A stretch of DNA of 64,000 bases from an uncultured delta proteobacterium (GCA_963848295.1 CAWKDB010000010.1:1344001-1408000); one strand, 5' to 3'. Positions 52,969-63,672 are shown, counted from the first letter of the stretch. A program made the numbers and translations. The notes: generated from the sequence alone by a model not told the origin.

Positions 52969-54552
52969 GTGCGGTTCGCGCCCGCCTGGCGGTTCGTCTT
53001 GACGTCGAGTGTCGCTTGTGGCTCGGCACCGGGCGGACAGCTCGCGCCGCCGCAAGCGCCGCCCGCACCGACGGCTCCACCCGCGCCGCCGATTCCGCAC
53101 GATGCCGCGCTCCCGCCTGCTCCCGATCTACCGAAGCTATCGTGCGATGCCGGGACCACGCCGATGCCGGCGGTGTTCCCCGAGCCCACGTGGTTTTGCG
53201 TACGTGATGGCGGCGTCCGGCAGGGGCCGTTCATCACGATGTTCCCGGACGACACGATCGAGATCAACGGCTCGTACAAAGACGGCAAGCTCGATGGGCC
53301 TTGGCAGCGGCACTATCCCGGCGGCGCCCTCGCCGAAGACGGCAGCTACACGGCCGGGCAGAAAGACGGCAAGTGGCGCCAGCTCTCGCCGACCGGCGCG
53401 GTGCTCGGCGAATACGAGATGAAAGCGGGCACCGGCACCGAGCGCCGTTGGTACGATGAAGGTCCGCTGTACAGCGAGCGTGGATTGCGCGGCGGTGTCG
53501 CGAACGGCCCGGCGAAGATCCTCGCGCCCGACGGCACGGTCCTGGTCAGCGCGAGGTACTGGGCCGGCAAGCTCGATGGTCCGCACGTCGTCGGCTACAA
53601 GCCATCGCTGCGCGTCGAGGAGACGTTCGGTCATGGCGTGCGCTTCGGCTCGCGCCAGATCTGGCAGTTCTGGCAGCTGCTGATCGACGAGGAATACGAC
53701 AACCACGGCAAGCTCGACGGCTCGTTCACGATCTGGCGCGACAAGAAGGTCCCGCGCGTCCAAGGCCGTTACGACCACGGCAAGCGCACCGGCACGTGGA
53801 CCTGGTTCGATCGCGGCAACAACAAGGAACGCGAGGGCGGTTTCGCCGACGGCAAGCGCGATGGCACGTGGACCGAGTGGTACGAGAACAAGGTCACGTT
53901 CACCGGCACGTACGTCGACGGCAAACCGGACGGCGACTTCACGTACTCCGATCGCGCCGGCAAGCAGATCGGCGAGTTCACGATGAAGGACGGCACGGGC
54001 ACGATGGAGACGTTCTGGCCGAACCATCAGGTCGCGACGCGGACGCGGCTCTATCAAGGCGATATGGACGGCGCCTACGAAGAGCTGACGCCGCACAAGA
54101 AGCGCGTCGTGCTCGGCTCGTACTCCGGCAATCGCAAGAACGGCTGGTGGCGCGAGTGGACCGAGCTCGGCGTGCTCACGCTCGAAGAGCACTGGAAGCG
54201 CGGCAAGCTCGACGGCTCGATGAAGAAGTACATCGATGGCAAGGTCGCGGTCGATGCGACGTACAAAGACGGCAAGCTCGAGGGGCCGTACACCGAGCTC
54301 AGGGGCGGCAAGCCGGCGCTGTCCGGGCAATGGACCGGCGATCGCAAGACCGGGACGTGGACCGAGTACGACGACGCCGGCTCGGTCACGCTGACCGCGA
54401 GCTACAAAGACGGCGTGCTCGACGGGCCGTGGCACCAGTTGATCGGCGGCGCCGTGATCGAGGGCACGATGGCCGCCGGACGGCGCTCGGGCGAATGGAA
54501 GCGCACCGACAAGGCGGGCACGGTCCAAACGACGGTTTACAAGACGCCGTAA
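52969..54552 (+). CDS. MORN-variant (YwqK-like) repeat protein, probably a lipoprotein
   Basis: Many G.Y.DGK.DG.W repeats after SVAC and a Pro-rich linker. Confidence 0.85.
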   Translation: MRFAPAWRFVLTSSVACGSAPGGQLAPPQAPPAPTAPPAPPIPHDAALPPAPDLPKLSCDAGTTPMPAVFPEPTWFCVRDGGVRQGPFITMFPDDTIEINGSYKDGKLDGPWQRHYPGGALAEDGSYTAGQKDGKWRQLSPTGAVLGEYEMKAGTGTERRWYDEGPLYSERGLRGGVANGPAKILAPDGTVLVSARYWAGKLDGPHVVGYKPSLRVEETFGHGVRFGSRQIWQFWQLLIDEEYDNHGKLDGSFTIWRDKKVPRVQGRYDHGKRTGTWTWFDRGNNKEREGGFADGKRDGTWTEWYENKVTFTGTYVDGKPDGDFTYSDRAGKQIGEFTMKDGTGTMETFWPNHQVATRTRLYQGDMDGAYEELTPHKKRVVLGSYSGNRKNGWWREWTELGVLTLEEHWKRGKLDGSMKKYIDGKVAVDATYKDGKLEGPYTELRGGKPALSGQWTGDRKTGTWTEYDDAGSVTLTASYKDGVLDGPWHQLIGGAVIEGTMAAGRRSGEWKRTDKAGTVQTTVYKTP

Positions 54553-54785
54553 CGCCGCGCCCGGCTTGGCACGTGTGGTTGAACCGGAGCTGCAACGAAG
54601 ATATTCCCGAGTGCAACCTCCGGCCGGCTCGCGCGTTCTTAGCTGTGTCAGCCGTGAACCGCGACGCCAAGACCCAATCGGCACTCCTCGCGCTTGCCCG
54701 CAACCGCCGCATGCAGCGCGCGGTCGCTCACGCGTACATCCATCGCGACACGCCGATCCCGACGCTGCGCGCCTCACTCGGCTTC

Positions 54786-55364
54786 ATGACCTCCACCGCG
54801 TGCACCGCCGAGCTCGAGCACGCGACGCTCGCCCCGCCCGGCCACAGCATGCGGGTGCTCGGGGTGTCGCTGCTCGAGGGCGTCGCGTACGTCTGCGAGG
54901 AGCTCGATCCCGGCGAACCGCCGATCGCGTACCGCCTGTTCTTGCGCGGCGCGCGCGCTGGCTACCTCGTGCCGATCCACGCGTGGTACGAGCACTGCGG
55001 CCCGTCCGACGAGGTTCGCGCCCGGGTCGCCGCCGTCGGTTCCACGCTCGAGCCGGTCGTCAAGATCACGACCGAGGCATGGATGCTGTCGACCCGCGTC
55101 GTGCAACGCCGCGCGCTCCGCGTCGCCGGCCAGGCCGTGCCGATCCGAAAGTTCGCGCTCCAACTCGCGGTCGACCCGGTCAGCGGCCATGGCCCTTTCG
55201 GCCGCACCACGGTGACCGCGTTCCTGAGGCCGAATGCCACGCTGCTCGACGTCTGGGCGGTCCCCGGCGACGCGACCTTGGCGATCGCGCGCGTCTCGTA
55301 CACCGGCATCCCGAGCGGCGTCGGACTCACCAAAGATACCGTCGTGCTGCTCGCCCAAGCGTGA
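54786..55364 (+). CDS. Hypothetical protein (alternative start 54711)
   Basis: 3' part of ORF 53796-55364 with normal protein composition. Confidence 0.6.
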   Translation: MTSTACTAELEHATLAPPGHSMRVLGVSLLEGVAYVCEELDPGEPPIAYRLFLRGARAGYLVPIHAWYEHCGPSDEVRARVAAVGSTLEPVVKITTEAWMLSTRVVQRRALRVAGQAVPIRKFALQLAVDPVSGHGPFGRTTVTAFLRPNATLLDVWAVPGDATLAIARVSYTGIPSGVGLTKDTVVLLAQA

Positions 55365-55383: not shown

Positions 55384-55923
55384 TCACCGGGTGAGCGTGT
55401 CGCAATCGATCAGCTTGAGCTCGACCGGATCACCGTGTTCGTCCGGCCCCGAGCTGGAGGTGGATTCGGTCTGCGATGTCAGGCCTCCGGATGACATCGC
55501 GAACGTCGTGGTGCTCGTATCACCCGAGCGCGCGTCGGTGCGCTTGATCGTCCACGACGTCCACTGCCACGGCGGTCCTTCGAGCTTGCCTTCGGCGCCG
55601 ACCCCGTCGTGGGTGGTGACCTTCGTCAGCGTGTCGAGCTTCACGCCGTGGACCGAGAACATTTCGGTCGACGGGCGCTGGCCTTTCGCGAGTCGGACGA
55701 GCGCGATCGTCCGGTGCGTGGGATCGAGCGTGATGCGAAGGGCGTCCTCGGGACGGGCCGTCGCGCGATAGCACGTCGTGGTCGGCGCGATCTGCGCCGG
55801 GCGAGCGAGCGCAGCGGATGGGGACGTCGCGCCAGCAGCGGGTTGTCCATGGTCGCTCGATGTCGGCTGCGACGAGCTCGAGCAGCCGACGACCGCGATT
55901 ACGCACACCCATGTGCCGTGCAC
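55384..55923 (-). CDS. Hypothetical lipoprotein
   Basis: Lipobox VVGC and a Ser/Pro linker; TAGGAT hexamer 6 nt before the GTG. Confidence 0.65.
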   Translation of the reverse strand: MHGTWVCVIAVVGCSSSSQPTSSDHGQPAAGATSPSAALARPAQIAPTTTCYRATARPEDALRITLDPTHRTIALVRLAKGQRPSTEMFSVHGVKLDTLTKVTTHDGVGAEGKLEGPPWQWTSWTIKRTDARSGDTSTTTFAMSSGGLTSQTESTSSSGPDEHGDPVELKLIDCDTLTR

Positions 55924-56010: not shown

Positions 56011-56229
56011 ATGCGATCCTCGGTCCTGTTGTCGGCGCTGATCGTGGCGACCTCGGCGCGCGACCTCGGCGCGAATGGCCGGCCGCCGGAGATCGTATCG
56101 ATCCACTTCCGGTCGGGCCATGCCGACATCGTCATGGGCGCGACGTTCGGGGTCGTGCTCAGCCGAGATGGCGGCTCGAGCTGGCAGGAGCAGATCGCGG
56201 ATCCTGCGATTACCGAGTGTGGGATCTGA
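56011..56229 (+). pseudogene. Truncated secreted Asp-box/BNR beta-propeller protein
   Basis: Signal peptide, ANGRPP...ATFGVVLSRDGGSSW, and a stop after a single Asp-box. Confidence 0.55.
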
Positions 56230-56243
56230 CGCTACAGGCCGGC

Positions 56244-56816
56244 TCACCACATCTGGAGCGCGCAGCCCAGCGTCTTGCCCTCGGGCCGGCGCGGCGGCCG
56301 ACCAGCGGTGAGATCGTCGAGCGCATCGGCGAGAAACGGGGTCGCGTCGGCACGTAGGTGCGACTTGTCCGCGTCGATACCACCGCGATAACGAATCTGG
56401 CCCGCCGAGTCGACGACCACCGAGTAGGTCGCGTAGACGGCGCCGAGCAAGGTCGCGAGCTTCGCCCCGGGATCGAGCAAGATCGGCGCGGGAAGCTTGC
56501 GCGCCTGTACCTCGTGGGCGTCTTCGTCCATCGTTCGACCGATTTCCGGATCGACGAACACGAACCGGACGCCACGCGGACTGAACTTGTCGACCAGTGC
56601 GCGCAGCCGTGGCTCGTGCGCGCCGAAGCACAAACAGTCCTTCGAGAAGAACACGAACACCGTGAACGGGGCGGCGGCCAGGTCGCGTGGATAACTCTCG
56701 ACCGCACCGGAGGTGGCGGTGAGCGTGAGGCTCGGCCAGTCGCCGGGCGCGATCGGCTTGGGCGTCGAAACACACGCGCCGAGCGCCAGACCCAACGCGA
56801 CCGATGTCCACTTCAT
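56244..56816 (-). CDS. Redoxin (thioredoxin-fold) lipoprotein
   Basis: Lipobox LGAC, VFVFFSKDCLC, LLDPG, IRYRGGID, C-terminal GC. Confidence 0.8.
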   Translation of the reverse strand: MKWTSVALGLALGACVSTPKPIAPGDWPSLTLTATSGAVESYPRDLAAAPFTVFVFFSKDCLCFGAHEPRLRALVDKFSPRGVRFVFVDPEIGRTMDEDAHEVQARKLPAPILLDPGAKLATLLGAVYATYSVVVDSAGQIRYRGGIDADKSHLRADATPFLADALDDLTAGRPPRRPEGKTLGCALQMW

Positions 56817-57721
56817 AGCCATGCGTAGATCACCGTGACAGTGGCAGCGACGCCCGCAACGGATTGGTTGGCTCCGAATGCCGAGAGCGGAGGATCGACC
56901 GTCAGGGCACCCTGTAACCTTAGCCGATCGCTGAGCGGCCTGACGCCCGAGATACTAAACGCGATCAACCTGCGATGTGTGCTCGGTTCGGTCACCCCGT
57001 CGATCTTCGCGTCGCCTTCGGCGGTAAACGATCCGGACAGCGCGATCGCGGTCTCCGAACGAAACGTGTAGGCGCCGACGAGCAGCGCAGTCCACTGCGT
57101 CGCGAGTGCCTCGGTGACGCCCTGCGCGGTTCGGTCCGCGCGCTTGGCGACGAGCCCGGTCGCGCCGACCAGCCAAGGCCCGATCGCTTTCTCGAGCGAG
57201 ATCCCGAAATTCGCCTGGTACGTCCCGACACCGGTCGCGTCGGTCGCGAGCGGCTTGGTCGCCGACTCGGGCGGCGTTCCGGTCGGGAACGTGACGCCCG
57301 CGAGCACCGCGATCCCGGGCGCATAGCGCGCCTCGGCCGCGTAGATAAAGTCATAGCGCACGCTCGCGTTGACGTCGCCGATGCCGCCGCCGAGCTCGGA
57401 GTCGGTCGTCGTCTTGCGCCAAGTCTCGACAAGCGGGACGAGCAACGCGGCTTGGCCCCGTGACAACACGCGGACCGCGCCGAACAGATCCTGCTCGAGA
57501 TCGACCTCCGAGGCGCCCGAGGGCATCGCGACGAACGTCCCCGTCGGATCGAAGGAACCGTACCCGTCGGTGAAGCGCGCGTCCGTCCCGACGAGCGCAT
57601 CCTCGTGCAGGGCAAGTCGGCCCGGCGTCACGGCGCTCGACCCGGCACAGCACGCTTGCGCGCGCGCCAGCGCTGGCGCGCCGACTAGTACGGCCAGCAC
57701 GGCCAGCGCGGCCACACCCAC
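56813..57721 (-). CDS. Outer-membrane beta-barrel/transporter with N-terminal Cys-Cys
   Basis: Signal peptide then QACCAG, GGIGDV..S.RY, FPTG, ATG.G and amphipathic strands. Confidence 0.7.
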   Translation of the reverse strand: MGVAALAVLAVLVGAPALARAQACCAGSSAVTPGRLALHEDALVGTDARFTDGYGSFDPTGTFVAMPSGASEVDLEQDLFGAVRVLSRGQAALLVPLVETWRKTTTDSELGGGIGDVNASVRYDFIYAAEARYAPGIAVLAGVTFPTGTPPESATKPLATDATGVGTYQANFGISLEKAIGPWLVGATGLVAKRADRTAQGVTEALATQWTALLVGAYTFRSETAIALSGSFTAEGDAKIDGVTEPSTHRRLIAFSISGVRPLSDRLRLQGALTVDPPLSAFGANQSVAGVAATVTVIYAWL

Positions 57722-57724
57722 GGT

Positions 57725-58162
57725 TTACTGGACCTGTAGCGAAGGCGCCACGTACGCGGGCAAAGACGCGATCGTCGTCCGTAGCTCCCACGAGCCCGCC
57801 ATGAACAAGTCGAGGTCATCGATCTGGTAAGCGCCTTCCCCGAGCGCGGTGACGACCGGCGTGATCGCGGTGCCGTGTCCCATCGCCGGCATCCACGGGA
57901 CGATGCTCAGCGCGAGTCCATCGACCGGCGAAGCATCGCTCGCGGTCGTGACGATGTACTGCATCGAGTGATTGCCGCGGGTCAGCTGCGGTTCGTGAGC
58001 GAGGACCGCGACCGTGTAGCCACCGTCGCTGGCCTCAGCGACTTGCACGAGCGGCCCGTCGTCGATGCCGGTGCCGTCAGACGTGCATGCCCCGAGTGCC
58101 AGCGCGGCCGCAACAACGTGTCGCGCAGCACACAGCGTCGAGCGCGGAGCGAGCGGCAACAT
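57725..58162 (-). CDS. YtkA/FixH-like lipoprotein
   Basis: Lipobox LGAC, PWMPAMGHG, G.Y, LFMAGSWE. Confidence 0.8.
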   Translation of the reverse strand: MLPLAPRSTLCAARHVVAAALALGACTSDGTGIDDGPLVQVAEASDGGYTVAVLAHEPQLTRGNHSMQYIVTTASDASPVDGLALSIVPWMPAMGHGTAITPVVTALGEGAYQIDDLDLFMAGSWELRTTIASLPAYVAPSLQVQ

Positions 58163-58197
58163 GCGTCGTGTATAGCCTAACCGACCACGCGTCACGC

Positions 58198-58214
58198 TGC
58201 GGTGAGTTTGCGCA
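58198..58214. promoter_or_regulatory. RegA/PrrA-like operator box 1
   Basis: TGCGGTGAGTTTGCGCA in the divergent intergenic region. Confidence 0.6.
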
Positions 58215-58244
58215 CCCCTCATCTCGACCTCGTCACGAACAGCG

Positions 58245-58261
58245 TGCGGTAAATTTTCGCA
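58245..58261. promoter_or_regulatory. RegA/PrrA-like operator box 2
   Basis: TGCGGTAAATTTTCGCA. Confidence 0.62.
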
Positions 58262-58311
58262 TCGGGGCTGTCGCATTGACACCGGTACGTTCGAGCTGAG
58301 CAAATGGCTGC

Positions 58312-58953
58312 GTGAAGAGCCAAACGATTCGGTCGATCGTAATTCCCCTTGCCACTCTCGTCGGCGCCGCCGGTGCCGCCGGTGTTCTGATCGTGAGCTG
58401 CAACAGCGATAGTGGGCCCGTCGGCGGCGATGTCGAAGGCGTGATGGACATGCACTGCATCGCGCCCGATGGCGGTTTGATCACGCAAACGACGAGCCAG
58501 AACGACTGCCAGTACCGTCCGCCGATCGACGCGCCTCTTGCGATCGATGCCCCGCCGCCCACCGCCGACGCGCCGCCCGATTTCGGCGCGACGATGTACA
58601 ACGCCACCGGCGACGACGACGATTGCAAGTACCACGTGGTCTGGACGTCGACCCCGATCCAGGAGAACAAGGACGTGTTCTTCACCGTGGTCGCCACCGT
58701 GAATGGCTCGAGCCCACCCGCGTCGGTCACCGGCGCGAACATCTACGCCGAGGTCTACTTGAGCTCGACGCACGAGGCGCCGCCGACCAACCAGAGTGCG
58801 AGCGAGATGCCGCCCGGCACCTACAAGGTCGGCCCGATCCGGTTCGATGCCCCCGGCAACTGGACCGTGCGGTTCCACCTGTTCGAGAACTGTCTCGACT
58901 ACGCGGATGATTCGCCGCACGGGCACGCCGCGTTCTACGTGGACGTGCCGTGA
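58312..58953 (+). CDS. YtkA/FixH-like Ig-fold lipoprotein
   Basis: Lipobox IVSC, DMHC, DAP linker, DDDCKY, PGTY.VGP..F..PGNWTVRFH, SPHGHAAF. Confidence 0.7.
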   Translation: MKSQTIRSIVIPLATLVGAAGAAGVLIVSCNSDSGPVGGDVEGVMDMHCIAPDGGLITQTTSQNDCQYRPPIDAPLAIDAPPPTADAPPDFGATMYNATGDDDDCKYHVVWTSTPIQENKDVFFTVVATVNGSSPPASVTGANIYAEVYLSSTHEAPPTNQSASEMPPGTYKVGPIRFDAPGNWTVRFHLFENCLDYADDSPHGHAAFYVDVP

Positions 58954-58954
58954 C

Positions 58955-59308
58955 GTGCAGCGCGTCGCAGTCGTAGTTGTGGTAGCGGTGTGCACGGCCT
59001 GGTTCGCATGTACGACGAGCCCGAATTGTCCTGCCGACGAACCGATGACGTGTCCGAGCCCGATGCCGAGCTACGCGAACGACGTGGCACCTCTGATCGG
59101 CAAGTACTGCGCGGTCAGCGGGTGCCATGTGCCCGACGGCTCGTCGGCGGATCAGCCGCTGAGCACGTATAGCGACCTGTACGACCGTCGGATCAATGCG
59201 CAGAACCAGATCTATCAGTGCCGGATGCCGTACAACCCACCGGATCCGACGCTCGACGAGCGCGTCACCTTGCTCGGCTGGTTCGTCTGCGGCGCACCGA
59301 ACAACTGA
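58955..59308 (+). CDS. Small cytochrome c-like lipoprotein with CX4CH
   Basis: PSY..DV.PL..KYCAVSGCH ... CRMP ... W..CGAP. Confidence 0.7.
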   Translation: MQRVAVVVVVAVCTAWFACTTSPNCPADEPMTCPSPMPSYANDVAPLIGKYCAVSGCHVPDGSSADQPLSTYSDLYDRRINAQNQIYQCRMPYNPPDPTLDERVTLLGWFVCGAPNN

Positions 59309-59321
59309 GCGGCGAGCTCGT

Positions 59322-59855
59322 CTAGCGCTTCACCGGAAACTTCGCGAGCTTGTACTGGAGCGTGCGGCGATGCACCCCGAGTGCTCGCGCCGCCATCGAG
59401 ACGTTGCCTCCGCACTCGCGCAGCACGCGCTCGATGTGCTCGCGCTCGAGCTTCGCCAGCGTCGGGATCTCGAACGCGGGACTCGCCGTGGCATCCGGAT
59501 CGAGATCGAACGCGGCGAGGATCTGATCCGCGTGTGCGGGCTTGGTCAAGTAGTTGCGGGCGCCGAGCCGGATCGCCTCGACCGCGGTCGCGATGCTCCC
59601 GTAACCGGTGAGCACGACGACCTCGGTCTCGGGCCGTAGCGCGAGCAAGTCCTGGAGCACGACGAGGCCGTGGCGCCCCGGCATGCGCAGGTCGATCACC
59701 GCCCGATCGATCACGCGCCGGCGCGCGAGCTCGATCGCCGCATCGTGATTCGCGGCGGAGAACGTTTCGTAGCCGCGATCCGCCAGCGCAGCGGTCAGGC
59801 GCTCGCGCAATCGGTCGTCGTCGTCGACCACGAGCATTGTCGGTCGCTCGCTCAT
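59322..59855 (-). CDS. RegA/PrrA/ActR-like response regulator
   Basis: VVDDD, VIDLRMP, LTGYGSIATAVEAIRLGA.NYL.KPA, EHI.RVL..CGGNVS.AAR.LG.HRRTLQ.KL. Confidence 0.93.
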   Translation of the reverse strand: MSERPTMLVVDDDDRLRERLTAALADRGYETFSAANHDAAIELARRRVIDRAVIDLRMPGRHGLVVLQDLLALRPETEVVVLTGYGSIATAVEAIRLGARNYLTKPAHADQILAAFDLDPDATASPAFEIPTLAKLEREHIERVLRECGGNVSMAARALGVHRRTLQYKLAKFPVKR

Positions 59856-61090
59856 CCGACCTCCGCCGGGAGACAGATCGTCGCACGGGTGCCGACGCCT
59901 GGCGTCGATTGGATCGTGAGCCGCCCGCCCCGGCTCTCGCAAAACGAGCGCGCGAGGAACACGCCGAGCCCCAAGCCCCGCCCGTCTCCCTTCGTCGTGA
60001 AGAACGGCGTCCCGATACGGGCCAGCACGTCGTCATCGATCCCGTCGCCGCGGTCCCGGACCTCGATCTCGATGCCGGCCTCACCGCCCAGCGTCACGAG
60101 CACGCGACCATCGCTGGCGTCGAGCGCGTTACCGACGAGCGCTGCGACCGCGTGCACGAGCTCGTCGCGCGGGATCGTGACCACGACCTCCGCGGAGGCG
60201 ACCTCGAAGTCGACGCGGTGCCCGCGGTCCTCGCCAAAGAGATCGCGGAGCCGCTCGGCGAGCTCGCCGAGGGTCAGCACCTCGTCAGACTCCGCCGAGT
60301 TGCTCGCGGCCATGCGCCCGAGGATGCTCTGGCACCGGCCGACCTCGAGTGCGATCAGCTCGAGATCGGCGACGATCGCCGACGCGCGCGCGCCGTCGGC
60401 GAAGTGGAGCTTCGCTTCGTGCGCCGCCACCGCGATCGTCGCGAGCGGGCTACCGAGCTCGTGCGCGGCCCCCGCGGCGAGCCGGGTCACCGCGGAGATC
60501 CGCTCCCTGCGTTCGCCGGCCTCGCGCAGCTGGGCGATCTGGTCGCGTTGCGACGAGATCGCGCCGGTGACCCGCGCCACGAAGAACGCGATCAGGATCG
60601 CCGCCAGGGCGAACGCGGCCCACATCGCCTGGAGGTGCATCCCGAAGCTGGAGCCACCGTGATGCATCATCGAGTGATCGGTCGACCCGACGAATAGCAG
60701 ACCAAACCCGGCGAGCGACAACGCCGCGATCGCTATGGTCCAGCGGGCACGCAGGACGATCGCGGAGAGCGTGATGTGCACGAGGTAGAGCACGGTGAAA
60801 GGATTCGCGGCGCCGCCGGATCCCATGAGCAACAGTGTGATCAGCGCTGTATCGAGTGCCATCGAGGCGCCGATCACCTCCGACCGCAGCCAGCGCCGCT
60901 TGGTGCGCGCGAACGACAGGGCCACGTTCGAGGCCGCCATGATCGCGATCTCGAGCCCGAGCGCGAACCAGTCGAGCGCGACGCCAAACCCATACGCGAT
61001 CGGTAGTGCGATCAGCTGGCCGGCGAGGAATGCCCAGCGCAATCTCACGAGCCACGGCAAGGTCACCGCGGGCTCGAGGTCGAACGTCAT
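59852..61090 (-). CDS. RegB/PrrB/ActS-like membrane sensor kinase
   Basis: WLVRLRW, SGG.ANPF, several TM helices, AAGAAHELGSPL.TI, NALDA, PFFTTK, GLGLGVFL. Confidence 0.92.
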   Translation of the reverse strand: MTFDLEPAVTLPWLVRLRWAFLAGQLIALPIAYGFGVALDWFALGLEIAIMAASNVALSFARTKRRWLRSEVIGASMALDTALITLLLMGSGGAANPFTVLYLVHITLSAIVLRARWTIAIAALSLAGFGLLFVGSTDHSMMHHGGSSFGMHLQAMWAAFALAAILIAFFVARVTGAISSQRDQIAQLREAGERRERISAVTRLAAGAAHELGSPLATIAVAAHEAKLHFADGARASAIVADLELIALEVGRCQSILGRMAASNSAESDEVLTLGELAERLRDLFGEDRGHRVDFEVASAEVVVTIPRDELVHAVAALVGNALDASDGRVLVTLGGEAGIEIEVRDRGDGIDDDVLARIGTPFFTTKGDGRGLGLGVFLARSFCESRGGRLTIQSTPGVGTRATICLPAEVG

Positions 61091-61137
61091 CGTCCTATCT
61101 TAGCGGCTTCGCTCGGCGCCCCCAGCACGTTGGACAC

Positions 61138-61154
61138 TGCGGCAATTTTGCGCG
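61138..61154. promoter_or_regulatory. RegA/PrrA-like operator box 3, upstream of the sensor kinase
   Basis: TGCGGCAATTTTGCGCG. Confidence 0.62.
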
Positions 61155-61173
61155 GTCCCAGAATTCGTCCAGC

Positions 61174-61656
61174 TCAGTCCGGCAGACAGAACTTGTAGAC
61201 GGCCGCGTCGTTGCCGGCGTCCGACTGCACGCTGATCGTCGTCTCCCAGTACCCCGGCATCCATAGATTGACCGGCGTCAGCTCGTAGTCGCCGTTACCG
61301 TCATCGGTGACCTGGACGACAATCGGGGAACCGTGGCCGTGATCGGGCATGTATGGAGTCGCTTCGACCGTCGCGCCCGCGACGGTCGAGCCGACGATGC
61401 CCTGCGCCATTGCCGAGACCTCGATCTGCCACGTGTTGTCGCCACGGGCCGGCGGCGCTGGATCGGCGGTCATCAGCTTGAAGTCCAGCATGCCCGCCCG
61501 CCCCTTGATCTCGAGCCCCGGCGTATACGGGGTCCAGCGGTTATCGGCGGCGCAATCGTAGGTCGCCCCGATCGAATCCGGGACCGCCATGCCCCCGTCG
61601 TGACAGCCCAAAGCCGCGGCCGGGAGAACTGCGAGCAAGAGGTGGATTGGGCGCAT
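61174..61656 (-). CDS. YtkA/FixH-like lipoprotein
   Basis: Lipobox ALGC, P.PPARGDN.W, PYMPDHGHG, NLWMPGYWE. Confidence 0.82.
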   Translation of the reverse strand: MRPIHLLLAVLPAAALGCHDGGMAVPDSIGATYDCAADNRWTPYTPGLEIKGRAGMLDFKLMTADPAPPARGDNTWQIEVSAMAQGIVGSTVAGATVEATPYMPDHGHGSPIVVQVTDDGNGDYELTPVNLWMPGYWETTISVQSDAGNDAAVYKFCLPD

Positions 61657-61810
61657 AAAGGTCCCTACGTCGGAGCTGACTCGAAGTTACCAGAGTACGA
61701 GCGGCGGATGACTTTAGTTTGCTCACCCCGGCTGACAGCCCGATGCAGCCGAACGTCTTGTATTCCGGCCAGGTCGAGCCACGCGCGGCATTTAGCCTCA
61801 CGCCGTGGCG

Positions 61811-63235
61811 TCAATCGGGGTTGCACGGCGTGTCGAGCGCGGATCCCGTCCCCATCGTCGCGCGGGTCCATGTGCGCTCGGTACCCTCGATATCGAGTGG
61901 CTGATCCATCGCAACAAACGACGGATCGAGGTCACCCGACGAGACGAGATCGTTCAGCACGCCATAGCTGTACGGGAGGATGCGCATCTTCGTCGTGATG
62001 TGGTCGACCATCGAAAAGTTCGCGATGTTGAACGTCGCGGTCGTCGAGTGATCTCCCATCAACGTGATCGCCACCTTGAGCGTCGGCGGAACCATCGCGG
62101 GCAGCTGAGTGTTCTCCGCGGCGACATCCCAGAAGAAGTGCGCCGGCGTCCCGTCGGATTTGTAGGTCCGATCCCAGAACCGATCACCGCCACTCGCGAG
62201 TTGTGGATCGGGATCGTCGGGGTCTTGCCCGGCCGGCACCGACGTGTCGAGCATGAGGTTGTTCGAGGCATCGAACGCTTGGACCTCGAGCCAAGCGCGA
62301 CGATCTTGTGCCGCGCCGGTCGGCCACGAGTGCCCGGGCCCGATCGAGACCATGCGCACGGTCAGCGTGCCGTCCGGGTTGAGGCAGATGCCGCCGGGAA
62401 TCGGCGGTCCGGTGATCGGTGTGGGCGAGATGATCGTGACCGCCGGGGCCAGGTCTCGCGCGATGTCCATCGCCATCACGTCGGTGTTCGGGAACGGCGT
62501 CAGCGCTTGATCGATGCCCGGCCAGACGTGCTCGTGGAATCCGTTCGTGCGCAGCGGCACATCCAGGCCAGGCTTGTCGGCGATCACATTCGTGCTCGAG
62601 ATCATGTGGCAGCCGGTGCACGTCAGCGGCAGGTGGTGCATGGGATCGTTGTTCGCGAACAGCGAGGCCTGCCACTCGGTATACGTCCGCTCGATCGGTA
62701 CGTTGTTCGGTGCGGGGGTGATGACGTCGTGACACGAGCCGCACATCGTCGAGTTGTTGGTCGCGGTCGCCATCATCGGATCGTTCAGCGAGTCGTGCGC
62801 TGGCGTGTGGACCGGGTTCGCAGCGCCGCCGCGCATGGTCTGGTCCAGCGCGAGCACGAGGCCGTTGTTGTGATCGGCCTGGATGGACTCGACGTCGTGG
62901 CAGAAGTAGCAGGTGATGCCGCGTGCTGCCGGCGGCAACGTCGTCGGATCGAAGTCGGTGCCGTCGGTCAGGCCGAGCGCGACCGCCATCGGCGCGTGAC
63001 ACTGCACGCAAAACGTGCCGAGCTGCGCTTCGCGTTGCCCGCGCTTGTTCATCGCGAGGAACACCGGATCGTCCGACGCGTACGCGTGCATCGATCCCGA
63101 CCACTGATCGTAGTGCGTCGGGTGGCAGGTCATACACGTGCCCGGGTCCTCGAGTTGTTCGATCGTGTCGAGCGGCGGATCGCTGCAAGCGGTCATCACG
63201 GAGACCACAGCAACGAACAAGACGGTGACCTTCAT
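61811..63235 (-). CDS. Multiheme c-type cytochrome lipoprotein (5 CxxCH)
   Basis: Lipobox MTAC; CMTCH..W.GS.H, CVQCH, CYFCH, CGSCH, CTGCH; GH.WPTG..DRR.W. Confidence 0.92.
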   Translation of the reverse strand: MKVTVLFVAVVSVMTACSDPPLDTIEQLEDPGTCMTCHPTHYDQWSGSMHAYASDDPVFLAMNKRGQREAQLGTFCVQCHAPMAVALGLTDGTDFDPTTLPPAARGITCYFCHDVESIQADHNNGLVLALDQTMRGGAANPVHTPAHDSLNDPMMATATNNSTMCGSCHDVITPAPNNVPIERTYTEWQASLFANNDPMHHLPLTCTGCHMISSTNVIADKPGLDVPLRTNGFHEHVWPGIDQALTPFPNTDVMAMDIARDLAPAVTIISPTPITGPPIPGGICLNPDGTLTVRMVSIGPGHSWPTGAAQDRRAWLEVQAFDASNNLMLDTSVPAGQDPDDPDPQLASGGDRFWDRTYKSDGTPAHFFWDVAAENTQLPAMVPPTLKVAITLMGDHSTTATFNIANFSMVDHITTKMRILPYSYGVLNDLVSSGDLDPSFVAMDQPLDIEGTERTWTRATMGTGSALDTPCNPD

Positions 63236-63672
63236 CGTGCGCTCCCACTGCCGGGCCCTGGAGCGCCAGCTTCGACCCATTGAATCAACGAGCAGCGCTC
63301 GGCCGCATCGAGTGCGTCGCCGATCGGCATCTGATAGTCGGCGCCGGGGGAGTCGGTGCGCACGATCATCAGGCTACATGAGGCGTCGCCTGGAACGACG
63401 CGTTTTCTCGACGGATCGATCGTCGAGTTATCGAGCAGACCGGCGTACGCGGTGGCCTCGTCGCCGAACGATAGACCCGCCTGATGACCCGCCGAGGAGT
63501 GGCATGACACCGCCTGAGAACCGCACGAATTCGTGAGGGTGAAGCTGTAGACGTTATCGAAGGTGGGCGAGTAGGCCGGTTTACAGGTCGTGTCCACTGT
63601 GATGCACGCGGGTGGCGACGACTTGACACAGCCGGCTGCAACCGCAAATACAGCGAGAGCCACTCCGCGCAT
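63232..63672 (-). CDS. Cytochrome c-like lipoprotein with CX6CH
   Basis: Lipobox AAGC, PTF..VY...L..SCGSQAVSCH, VVPGD...SL, QMP, I.QW...GA; ATGA overlap with the multiheme gene. Confidence 0.72.
   Translation of the reverse strand: MRGVALAVFAVAAGCVKSSPPACITVDTTCKPAYSPTFDNVYSFTLTNSCGSQAVSCHSSAGHQAGLSFGDEATAYAGLLDNSTIDPSRKRVVPGDASCSLMIVRTDSPGADYQMPIGDALDAAERCSLIQWVEAGAPGPGSGSAR

Follow-up and report, generated by a model that had tools for sequence, protein, structure and literature searches.

The window analysed here, a 64,000-nucleotide stretch from an uncultured delta proteobacterium (GCA_963848295.1, CAWKDB010000010.1:1344001-1408000), carries ten clustered genes at 56244-63672: three YtkA-like lipoproteins, a Cys-Cys outer-membrane barrel, a CxC redoxin, a RegB/RegA-like pair, a pentahaem lipoprotein and two small cytochrome-like lipoproteins (Table 1). 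The interpretation we favour, to which we give about an even chance, is that the module built around the barrel is a RegA-controlled envelope copper supply system, in which copper would pass through the Cys-Cys barrel to CrdA/YtkA-like chaperones for periplasmic copper enzymes. The module is patchily distributed, comprises eight of the ten genes and was likely inserted into a resident cytochrome locus. We infer the direction of flux, the identity of the metal and each binding step from sequences and structure models.

Every open reading frame (ORF) listed in a first-pass annotation of this DNA was recovered with its motifs, including those of the YtkA trio, the five haem motifs of the pentahaem, the two small cytochrome-like lipoproteins, the barrel's Cys-Cys and the redoxin's CxC, with the reservation that ytk2 scores below the family cut-off (see below). 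The genome's relatives place it in the Kofleriaceae (Myxococcota), the host being a soil myxobacterium of an abundant soil genus. Gene spacing indicated at least three transcription units. One, on the minus strand, comprises cytochrome 2 and the pentahaem, whose genes overlap by 4 bp, followed by ytk3 and regB-regA; a second, on the plus strand, holds ytk2 and small cytochrome 1; and a third, again on the minus strand, is ytk1-barrel-redoxin, divergent from ytk2 over 149 bp. A lipobox-type Cys, judged by motif, is kept in seven products. A sigma-70 promoter scan found none, and the number of terminators was near chance.

The YtkA lipoprotein and Cys-Cys barrel core

Relatives of the barrel were collected in a GTDB scan (137 confirmed, 80 kept) and combined with 7 others into a set of 87 loci, which includes two near-duplicate pairs and in which kin are not independent; genes were counted by six-frame hidden Markov model (HMM) searches because the gene caller missed some ORFs. 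YtkA genes were found in 82 of these loci, the redoxin in 72, ytk2 in 51, small cytochrome 1 in 42, the pentahaem in 20, regB and regA in 19 each (with 3 regB matches lacking the NPF motif) and cytochrome 2 in 5. This clustering exceeds chance. Among 20 barrel loci from other families, YtkA was present in 19, the redoxin in 6, regBA in 6 and the pentahaem in none. The predicted core of the module is a YtkA lipoprotein and a Cys-Cys barrel, together with a CxC redoxin, and it recurs across Myxococcota. The cytochrome pair is distributed separately from this core. Of 301 Myxococcota genomes searched, 53 matched the barrel profile; a separate search with it gave 952 representatives at E ≤ 0.001. 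One carrier of a barrel locus, Minicystis rosea DSM 24000 (L111), is in culture.

The structure model of the barrel (predicted local distance difference test score, pLDDT, 85.8) matched FapF (Z 27.7, root-mean-square deviation (rmsd) 2.2 over 257 residues) and Pput2725 (4RL8; Z 25.8, rmsd 2.6 over 254; Foldseek E 4e-14). By this model the protein is a 12-stranded, COG4313-type barrel. It gave no match to PF13557, which was matched by 12 of 32 relatives (best E 1e-5). The predicted mature protein starts with QACC, placing Cys24-Cys25 right after the predicted signal peptide, and the Cys-Cys pair was found in 86 of 86 relatives and in all 20 barrels from distant families. The lumen of Pput2725 is occluded by N-terminal residues (PMC4493636). 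Residue 25 of our model aligns to residue 4 of 4RL8, within a segment of pLDDT < 50 (residues 12-32), and the Cys-Cys would fall in the segment that plugs the lumen in Pput2725.

The PF13115 cut-off (25.9 bits) was passed by ytk1 and ytk3 (Table 1) and failed by ytk2 (19.0 bits), whose Atlas neighbours carry PF13115 at 86-89%. The YtkA-1 gene nearly always stands directly upstream of the barrel (78 adjacent upstream YtkA genes in 85 loci); M91, H96 and M121 are invariant in 66 of 66 rows, and M94 is present in 55. The YtkA-1 family profile matched Helicobacter pylori CrdA (9LL2, E 2.3e-4), with M91 and M121 aligned to CrdA Met residues, and the arrangement that marks CrdA, an Ig-like fold with a Met cluster from a loop and a strand, was found in YtkA-1. 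The CrdA motif MxxMPGM, without His, was absent from the YtkA trio, in which MPAMGHG, MPDHGHG and SPHGH stand at that place. YtkA-2 has six invariant residues (C49, C66, C105, H189, H203, H205) and three near-invariant ones (H48, H154, C194). CrdA was the first-ranked Foldseek match of its model (pLDDT 89.0) and the best fold match (Z 9.5, rmsd 2.8 over 103 residues); no other chain reached Z ≥ 8. Cu(II) is bound by CrdA with micromolar affinity, and tighter Cu(I) binding has been proposed (PMC9182242); YtkA domains support CuA assembly in Bacillus subtilis (PMC13344008, PMC9145763). The metal handling suggested in the first-pass annotation is supported by this likeness to CrdA, by the invariant Met, His and Cys residues and by the copper-related neighbours described below.

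The redoxin, whose nearest solved relative was 2YWI (E 7e-25), conserves C61 (71 of 71), C63 (65 of 71), H67 (68 of 71) and C185 (69 of 71). In small cytochrome 1, C52, C57, H58, C89, M91 and C112 were found in 41 of 41 relatives. The haem motif is CxxCH in 35 of the 41 and CX4CH in 3; the window's CAVSGCH (CX4CH) is therefore a local variant. Neither small cytochrome of the window has a canonical CxxCH, haem attachment being predicted for both, and Ccm-like genes were recognised by motif in the genome.

The steps we propose for copper supply are as follows. The N-terminal segment of the barrel would plug the lumen as in Pput2725, with the Cys-Cys binding Cu(I). YtkA-1 and YtkA-3 would take Cu(I) through Met and His residues, and YtkA-2 may bind Cu(II) through His. 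The redoxin would keep thiols reduced, and small cytochrome 1 could shuttle one electron for the Cu(II)/Cu(I) change.

RegB/RegA, palindromic boxes and leader ORFs

The two-component genes had been called RegB/RegA-like, and NF033792 and NF033791 were indeed their best matches, at 225.5 bits for RegB and 148.5 bits for RegA, under cut-offs of 350 and 250. RegB contains GGAANPF, of the GGxxNPF type that forms the quinone site of RegB proteins, and C253 in the kinase domain. A kinase Cys is conserved in RegB, and in Rhodobacter capsulatus RegA Cys156 forms a copper-stimulated disulfide (PMC9147068); Cys148 of the window RegA matches it in position. A Cys before the helix-turn-helix of RegA was found in 16 of 19 barrel-linked rows, the other 3 being unmatched by the pattern, and in 14 of 14 barrel-less members of the clade; the housekeeping RegA paralogue has it in 0 of 6 and Ala in 6 of 6. 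In the genus, a near-universal RegB-like kinase was accompanied by an accessory clade (E < 1e-100) in 20 of 72 genomes, a tally that includes genome G010, and the window RegB belongs to the accessory clade. The second RegB/RegA-like pair of the genome (G000:C10:92231-94149) is near-universal in the genus, lacks the His loop and the RegA Cys, and has a DsbA-like gene upstream.

The RegB periplasmic loop has 2-6 His in the accessory clade versus 0-1 in the housekeeping clade, by a comparison that left out the L037 row and used a quick-build tree. The case for a His-rich loop as a copper-specific mark is weakened, since RegB proteins of other families also have it. Gene context was read for 14 of the 15 barrel-less members, with 28 genes picked by hand: MbnP scored above its cut-off at 8 of 14 loci and MbnH at 7 of 14, and a multicopper oxidase-like gene and a Csp-like one were seen at a single locus. 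No Sco/SenC was found among the cluster genes, and co-transcription with senC, a group 1 trait, was not seen.

A first box search used a RegA/RegR consensus and a filter set after two window sites had been seen; for the weaker box upstream of regB, too, the filter was chosen after sight of the site. Similar imperfect RegA-type boxes appear in Table 1 of PMC4064962. The top dyad found de novo, TGCG-N9-CGCA, occurred in 21 of 80 upstream regions of relatives (window excluded), against 0.83 in shuffles, and it occurs twice in the window's 149-bp divergent promoter. Intergenic boxes were found at 12 of 18 regBA loci (21 sites/25 kb), 17 of 46 loci with neither regulator gene (23/68 kb), 1 of 22 leader loci (1/34 kb) and 1 of 20 resident controls (1/41 kb), the genome-wide density being 45/1314 kb. 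Only 4 of the 14 barrel-less RegB-clade loci have a box. The same box lies upstream of the genome's atp genes (G000:C10:588375) and of one ACIII-oxidase cluster (C10:4412159); none was found upstream of the cytochrome pair. The box upstream of regB predicts autoregulation and, with those in the divergent promoter, agrees with the self-regulation claimed earlier.

Of 86 loci of relatives, 23 have a short Cys-rich ORF with a Pro-rich end close to the operon, in most cases heading it. Its motif is HxCxC...CxxC...PPTPPPR; the window has no such leader and carries the RegA-type boxes instead. The 22 leaders that were aligned all span 120-141 residues with PPP 7-9 residues from the end, and they agree with the published rules for CutF-like leaders (PMC9973294): under 150 residues, PP within 15 residues of the C-terminus, a Cys motif and, by eye, a hydrophobic N-terminus. 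CutF-type leaders turn genes on in copper (PMC9973294), and the related CruR is described in PMC9426467. None of the 22 matched DUF2946 (PF11162) at E ≤ 1, and membership of that family was set aside. A leader and an adjacent regB stood together in 1 locus (Fisher P 0.023, 60 well-flanked loci, kin not independent), and a box was present in 2 of 23 leader loci versus 28 of 63 others (P 0.002, kin not independent); with first genes only, the figures were 0 of 8 versus 23 of 72 (P 0.097). The pattern is suggestive of leaders and boxes tending to exclude each other at the operon. In the scheme we propose, RegA would bind the boxes and turn the operons on when respiration is limited, and the likely clients would be the genome's haem-copper oxidases. 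The gene cluster has no oxidase subunits, as first reported, but two haem-copper oxidase clusters and two COX2 genes lie elsewhere in the genome.

Gene neighbourhood and the nature of the cargo

The scan of flanking genes covered 123 of 144, the other 21 being already annotated or duplicated. Genes of copper type were Sco (L053), CusF (L057), YcnI/DUF1775 (L109), a P1B ATPase and a CusB-like protein. Cupredoxins occur in L027 and L028; P1B ATPases were found in 3 barrel loci and Csp-like proteins, below cut-off, in 3. NosZ and NosD occur near a YtkA-barrel pair in L197 and L202: in the former (L197:2659-7891) the pair adjoins nosZ, with regBA, and in the latter (L202:6648-11796) it lies directly downstream of a nosD/nosL cluster. 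The pair could possibly stand in there for the NosA copper receptor. Copper genes outweigh nickel genes among the neighbours, although the signal is modest. MbnP was not found in the genome with TIGR04052, at 85% genome completeness.

Several observations weigh against copper supply. The Cys-Cys segment is the poorly modelled part of the barrel, the COG4313 barrels studied so far are believed to transport hydrophobic compounds rather than ions (PMC4493636), and the sequence match to CrdA is weak. Because CrdA is a resistance protein, likeness to it does not fix the direction of flux. Six RegB proteins from other families also have 3-8 loop His, and the P values for leaders and boxes overstate the case because kin loci are not independent. 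Most of the 123 flanking genes are unrelated to copper, about five being of copper type, and nickel genes occur too (NikR in 4 of 87 loci, HupE/UreJ in L091).

The main rival, which we consider unlikely, is that the module buffers or expels periplasmic copper as a resistance system in the manner of CrdA, the closest solved relative of YtkA-1 and YtkA-2. Genes for P1B ATPases, CusF, a CusB-like protein and Csp-like storage proteins lie near the module, the switching on of genes in copper by CutF-type leaders (PMC9973294) would fit, and a patchy distribution (6 of 72 same-genus genomes) is typical of resistance islands. However, RegA-type boxes shared with the atp and oxidase genes fit supply to respiration, neighbours such as Sco, YcnI and NosZ/NosD serve biogenesis or uptake, and the core has no efflux pump or multicopper oxidase.

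We regard as still less probable that the substrate is a soft metal other than copper (Ni, Co, Ag, Hg) or a compound that is hydrophobic or reacts with thiols; the barrel would then work as other COG4313 channels do, with the Cys-Cys a structural or redox gate. The hydrophobic precedent of COG4313 (PMC4493636) points this way, as do the 4 loci in which NikR and a TonB receptor lie within 4-7 kb, the HupE/UreJ locus and an NiFe hydrogenase-like cluster in the genome, recognised by motif and sequence only. Yet NikR accompanies the TonB receptor and not the core, Met-rich YtkA/CrdA sites favour Cu(I) by established chemistry (PMC9182242), and copper neighbours are more numerous than nickel ones.

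Two units at one locus, and comparison with known systems

The cluster had been read as one ten-gene module. The barrel was found in 6 of 72 same-genus genomes and ytk2 in the same 6, and the pentahaem was found in 69 of 72 at a fixed site (a tally that includes G010 and G050, both flagged unpublished). In 20 pentahaem loci taken apart from barrel clusters, cytochrome 2 always adjoined the pentahaem and a YtkA-type gene did so in 16; a sugar kinase-like gene flanked 19, a conserved hypothetical gene 15 and a MORN-repeat gene 15. A MORN-repeat lipoprotein-like gene and a conserved hypothetical gene occupy 52969-55364 (+) of the window. Both window flanks match those of resident loci and are missing from all 80 barrel loci compared, so the resident locus is interrupted between about 55.4 kb and ytk3. 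On the basis of distribution and synteny, a single ten-gene system was rejected in favour of the likely insertion of the other eight genes beside the resident cytochrome pair. In quick FastTree builds, which are weak evidence, the window ytk3 was nearest the barrel-cluster copies L037 (70%) and L033, with support 88, and the window pentahaem was nearest a resident copy (62%). No telling direct or inverted repeats were found at the insert, its GC content (0.673) is close to that of the genome (0.682), and no joint spanning the insertion was recovered from one DNA run of low depth.

Close to the left edge of the insert lies a gene remnant at 56011-56229, detected by an HMM match and by 54% identity over 41 residues to the N-terminus of an L038 protein, with no match beyond. 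The full-length relative has BNR/Sortilin matches, and the gene is whole in some relatives' clusters; by sequence comparison the remnant is a predicted part of the inserted module. A 179-residue lipoprotein-like ORF at the same edge (window 55384-55923, minus strand) had no Pfam or NCBIfam match and none in the fetched loci.

The window pentahaem has five CxxCH motifs, as do 37 of 38 aligned rows, and its profile matched T. tepidum c552 (5ZE8) at E 4e-17 and MccSep (9WT9) at E 9e-10. In c552 a Cys serves as a haem ligand. Between haems 4 and 5 the pentahaem has no Cys but Glu-Arg-Thr, with E182 and R183 in 38 of 38 rows, and Ala308 (A 28, S 7, T 2 of 38; GHSWPTGA) stands where MccSep has Sec325, the exact register resting on individually weak alignment stretches. 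MccSep uses a haem-ligating Cys239 (haem 2) and Sec325 (10.1101/2025.11.18.688581). Since both catalytic residues are missing, an MccSep-type polysulfide reductase was ruled out; an open haem with distal Glu and Arg would suggest peroxidase-like catalysis. The adjoining cytochrome 2 has CGSQAVSCH, and CX6CH was found in 19 of 20 loci, with the pentahaem adjacent in 20 of 20; its Atlas clusters are 66-94% PSCyt1. The pair is likely a separate redox unit, often recruited beside the module, with an undescribed redox job of its own.

It appears improbable that all ten genes form one unit. In that reading the YtkA proteins would have the pentahaem, whose open haem carries Glu-Arg, as their catalytic redox partner (copper reductase or oxidase, or peroxidase), and the insertion would have brought former partners back together. 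It would account for the pentahaem in 20 of 87 barrel loci from several families and for the YtkA-type gene at 16 of 20 resident loci, but sits badly with the unequal genus counts, with the lack of a pentahaem at all 20 distant barrel loci and with the lack of a RegA-type box upstream of the cytochrome pair. Barrels of porin-cytochrome conduits have more than 20 strands. Surface electron transfer, proposed earlier, would in this form be suggested by the presence together of a barrel, a multihaem lipoprotein and the two small cytochromes. It was set aside as very improbable: the barrel has 12 strands, and the lumen, about 10-12 A wide in the solved relative (PMC4493636), could not enclose a cytochrome; moreover, 67 of 87 barrel loci have no pentahaem.

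Copper supply thus remains our preferred reading. A fuller composite, which we hold tentatively, is a copper channel that works without TonB, in which a Cys-Cys plug would gate the 12-stranded COG4313 barrel and Cu(I) would be handed to dedicated CrdA-fold lipoproteins, the operon being under a RegA box read by a copper-associated RegBA paralogue or, interchangeably, a new family of Cys-rich ribosome-stalling leaders, beside a genus-wide MccSep-fold pentahaem enzyme with a Glu-Arg active site and a CX6CH partner.

Table 1. Features of the cluster and its edges (window positions)
Feature	Position	Strand	Basis or remark
Propeller-like gene remnant, 72 codons	56011..56229	+	Full-length relatives ~500 residues, BNR/propeller-like, secreted; near left insertion edge
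Redoxin: thioredoxin-fold lipoprotein, C61-x-C63, H67, C-terminal G-C185	56244..56816	-	AhpC-TSA 30.3 bits
Outer-membrane barrel, 12-stranded COG4313/FapF type (modelled), Cys24-Cys25	56813..57721	-	Structure model and fold matches
YtkA-1, YtkA/CrdA-like lipoprotein (MPAMGHG)	57725..58162	-	PF13115 36.2 bits
RegA-type palindrome TGCG-N9-CGCA, copy 1, in 149-bp divergent promoter	58198..58214		De novo dyad
RegA-type palindrome TGCG-N9-CGCA, copy 2, AT-rich centre	58245..58261		De novo dyad
YtkA-2, divergent CrdA-fold lipoprotein (SPHGH)	58312..58953	+	Model and fold match
Small cytochrome c 1, predicted monohaem lipoprotein, His/Met ligands, CX4CH	58955..59308	+	Conservation
RegA-like response regulator, Cys148 before helix-turn-helix	59322..59855	-	NF033791 best match
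RegB-like sensor kinase, GGAANPF, Cys253, His/Met-rich periplasmic loop	59852..61090	-	NF033792 best match
Weaker RegA-type box, 83-bp gap upstream of regB	61138..61154		8/10 consensus, AT-rich centre
YtkA-3 lipoprotein (MPDHGHG), probable right insertion edge	61174..61656	-	PF13115 40.6 bits
Pentahaem c-type cytochrome lipoprotein, c552/MccSep fold family, resident	61811..63235	-	5 CxxCH and profile matches
Small cytochrome c 2 (PSCyt1-like), CX6CH, distal Met, resident; overlaps pentahaem start	63232..63672	-	PSCyt1 20.4 bits, below cut-off

Other loci were noted in passing. At G000:C10:1133817-1142606 a short His-rich ORF that ends in SPP precedes a TonB receptor and its two lipoprotein partners; around them lie genes for two Fur-like regulators and a ZIP-like transporter and an ArsR-like gene, all named from sequence. 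This is likely a zinc/nickel uptake locus with a leader ORF, and its receptor trio adjoins the module in L036/L038. Another TonB receptor (L206, G000:C10:3617173-3629158), headed by a His-rich ORF ending RGPP (no Pfam match), adjoins a multicopper oxidase and a P1B ATPase. MNIO (DUF692, bufferin-maturase-like) genes lie near the RegB clade and the module (L166:3923-6548, at 306 bits against a cut-off of 310, and L050, L066, L080). The genome is rich in multihaem proteins, with 28, 23, 16 and 14 CxxCH motifs. Its second ACIII-oxidase cluster (G000:C10:4413968-4424984) and hydrogenase genes (C4:22460-25187) were called in fragments, perhaps from frameshifts or assembly errors.

No printed description of this gene combination was found, in a search whose scope took in few subscription papers; the supplements of PMC9973294 and PMC9426467 may list the leaders. 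Outer-membrane passage of copper without a TonB receptor is poorly known, and the module is a candidate for it, with a small barrel, two invariant cysteines and a fixed chaperone partner. If true, COG4313 channels would be extended from hydrophobic substrates to a metal. The YtkA domain is linked to the solved CrdA fold, and the data suggest that redox control by RegA and copper-sensing leaders may replace one another at a single operon. A second lead, independent of the module, is the resident pentahaem, which is near-universal in an abundant soil genus and has the MccSep scaffold with other active-site residues.

Among known systems, the Myxococcus xanthus curA operon with CorSR (PMC3707914) is likewise an envelope copper cluster of a myxobacterium, and it too combines lipoproteins and a small cytochrome with a two-component system. 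It has CuoA, CopA and the sigma-54 regulator CorR, none of them among our ten genes, and lists no YtkA protein, barrel or redoxin; identity with curA was rejected because of this difference in gene content. MccSep (9WT8/9WT9) and c552 (5ZE8) share with the pentahaem five CxxCH motifs, a C-terminal Ig-like domain and stretches from haem 1 to the GH..P.G loop, but the window protein is a lipoprotein with a CX6CH partner, and has Glu-Arg-Thr, and Ala or Ser at the position of Sec325. The leaders of relatives resemble CruR/CutF (PMC9426467, PMC9973294) as short Cys-rich ORFs with a hydrophobic start and a Pro-rich end, and differ in their motif and in matching no DUF2946. RegB/RegA (PrrB/PrrA, ActS/ActR) with SenC shares GGxxNPF, the kinase Cys, the RegA Cys before the helix-turn-helix, palindromic GCG-type boxes and a link to a copper chaperone (PMC9147068, PMC4064962); the window pair, in contrast, is below the NCBIfam cut-offs, is an accessory paralogue beside a near-universal one, and is accompanied, in its clade, by YtkA/barrel or MbnPH genes and not senC. 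Known COG4313/SphA channels (Pput2725, 4RL8; PMC4493636) and FapF (5O65) are tied to hydrophobic substrates or amyloid export, whereas the window barrel has an N-terminal Cys-Cys and a fixed lipoprotein partner. Finally, CrdA, CtaK-YtkA and the YtkA domain of YcnJ have the same Ig-like fold and are lipoproteins, with the Met/His loop and strand Met aligned in YtkA-1. Unlike them, the window has three paralogues with different ligand types and MPAMGHG in place of MxxMPGM; oxidase genes are not adjacent, and the partner is a small barrel rather than an RND pump or a CopC/CopD importer.

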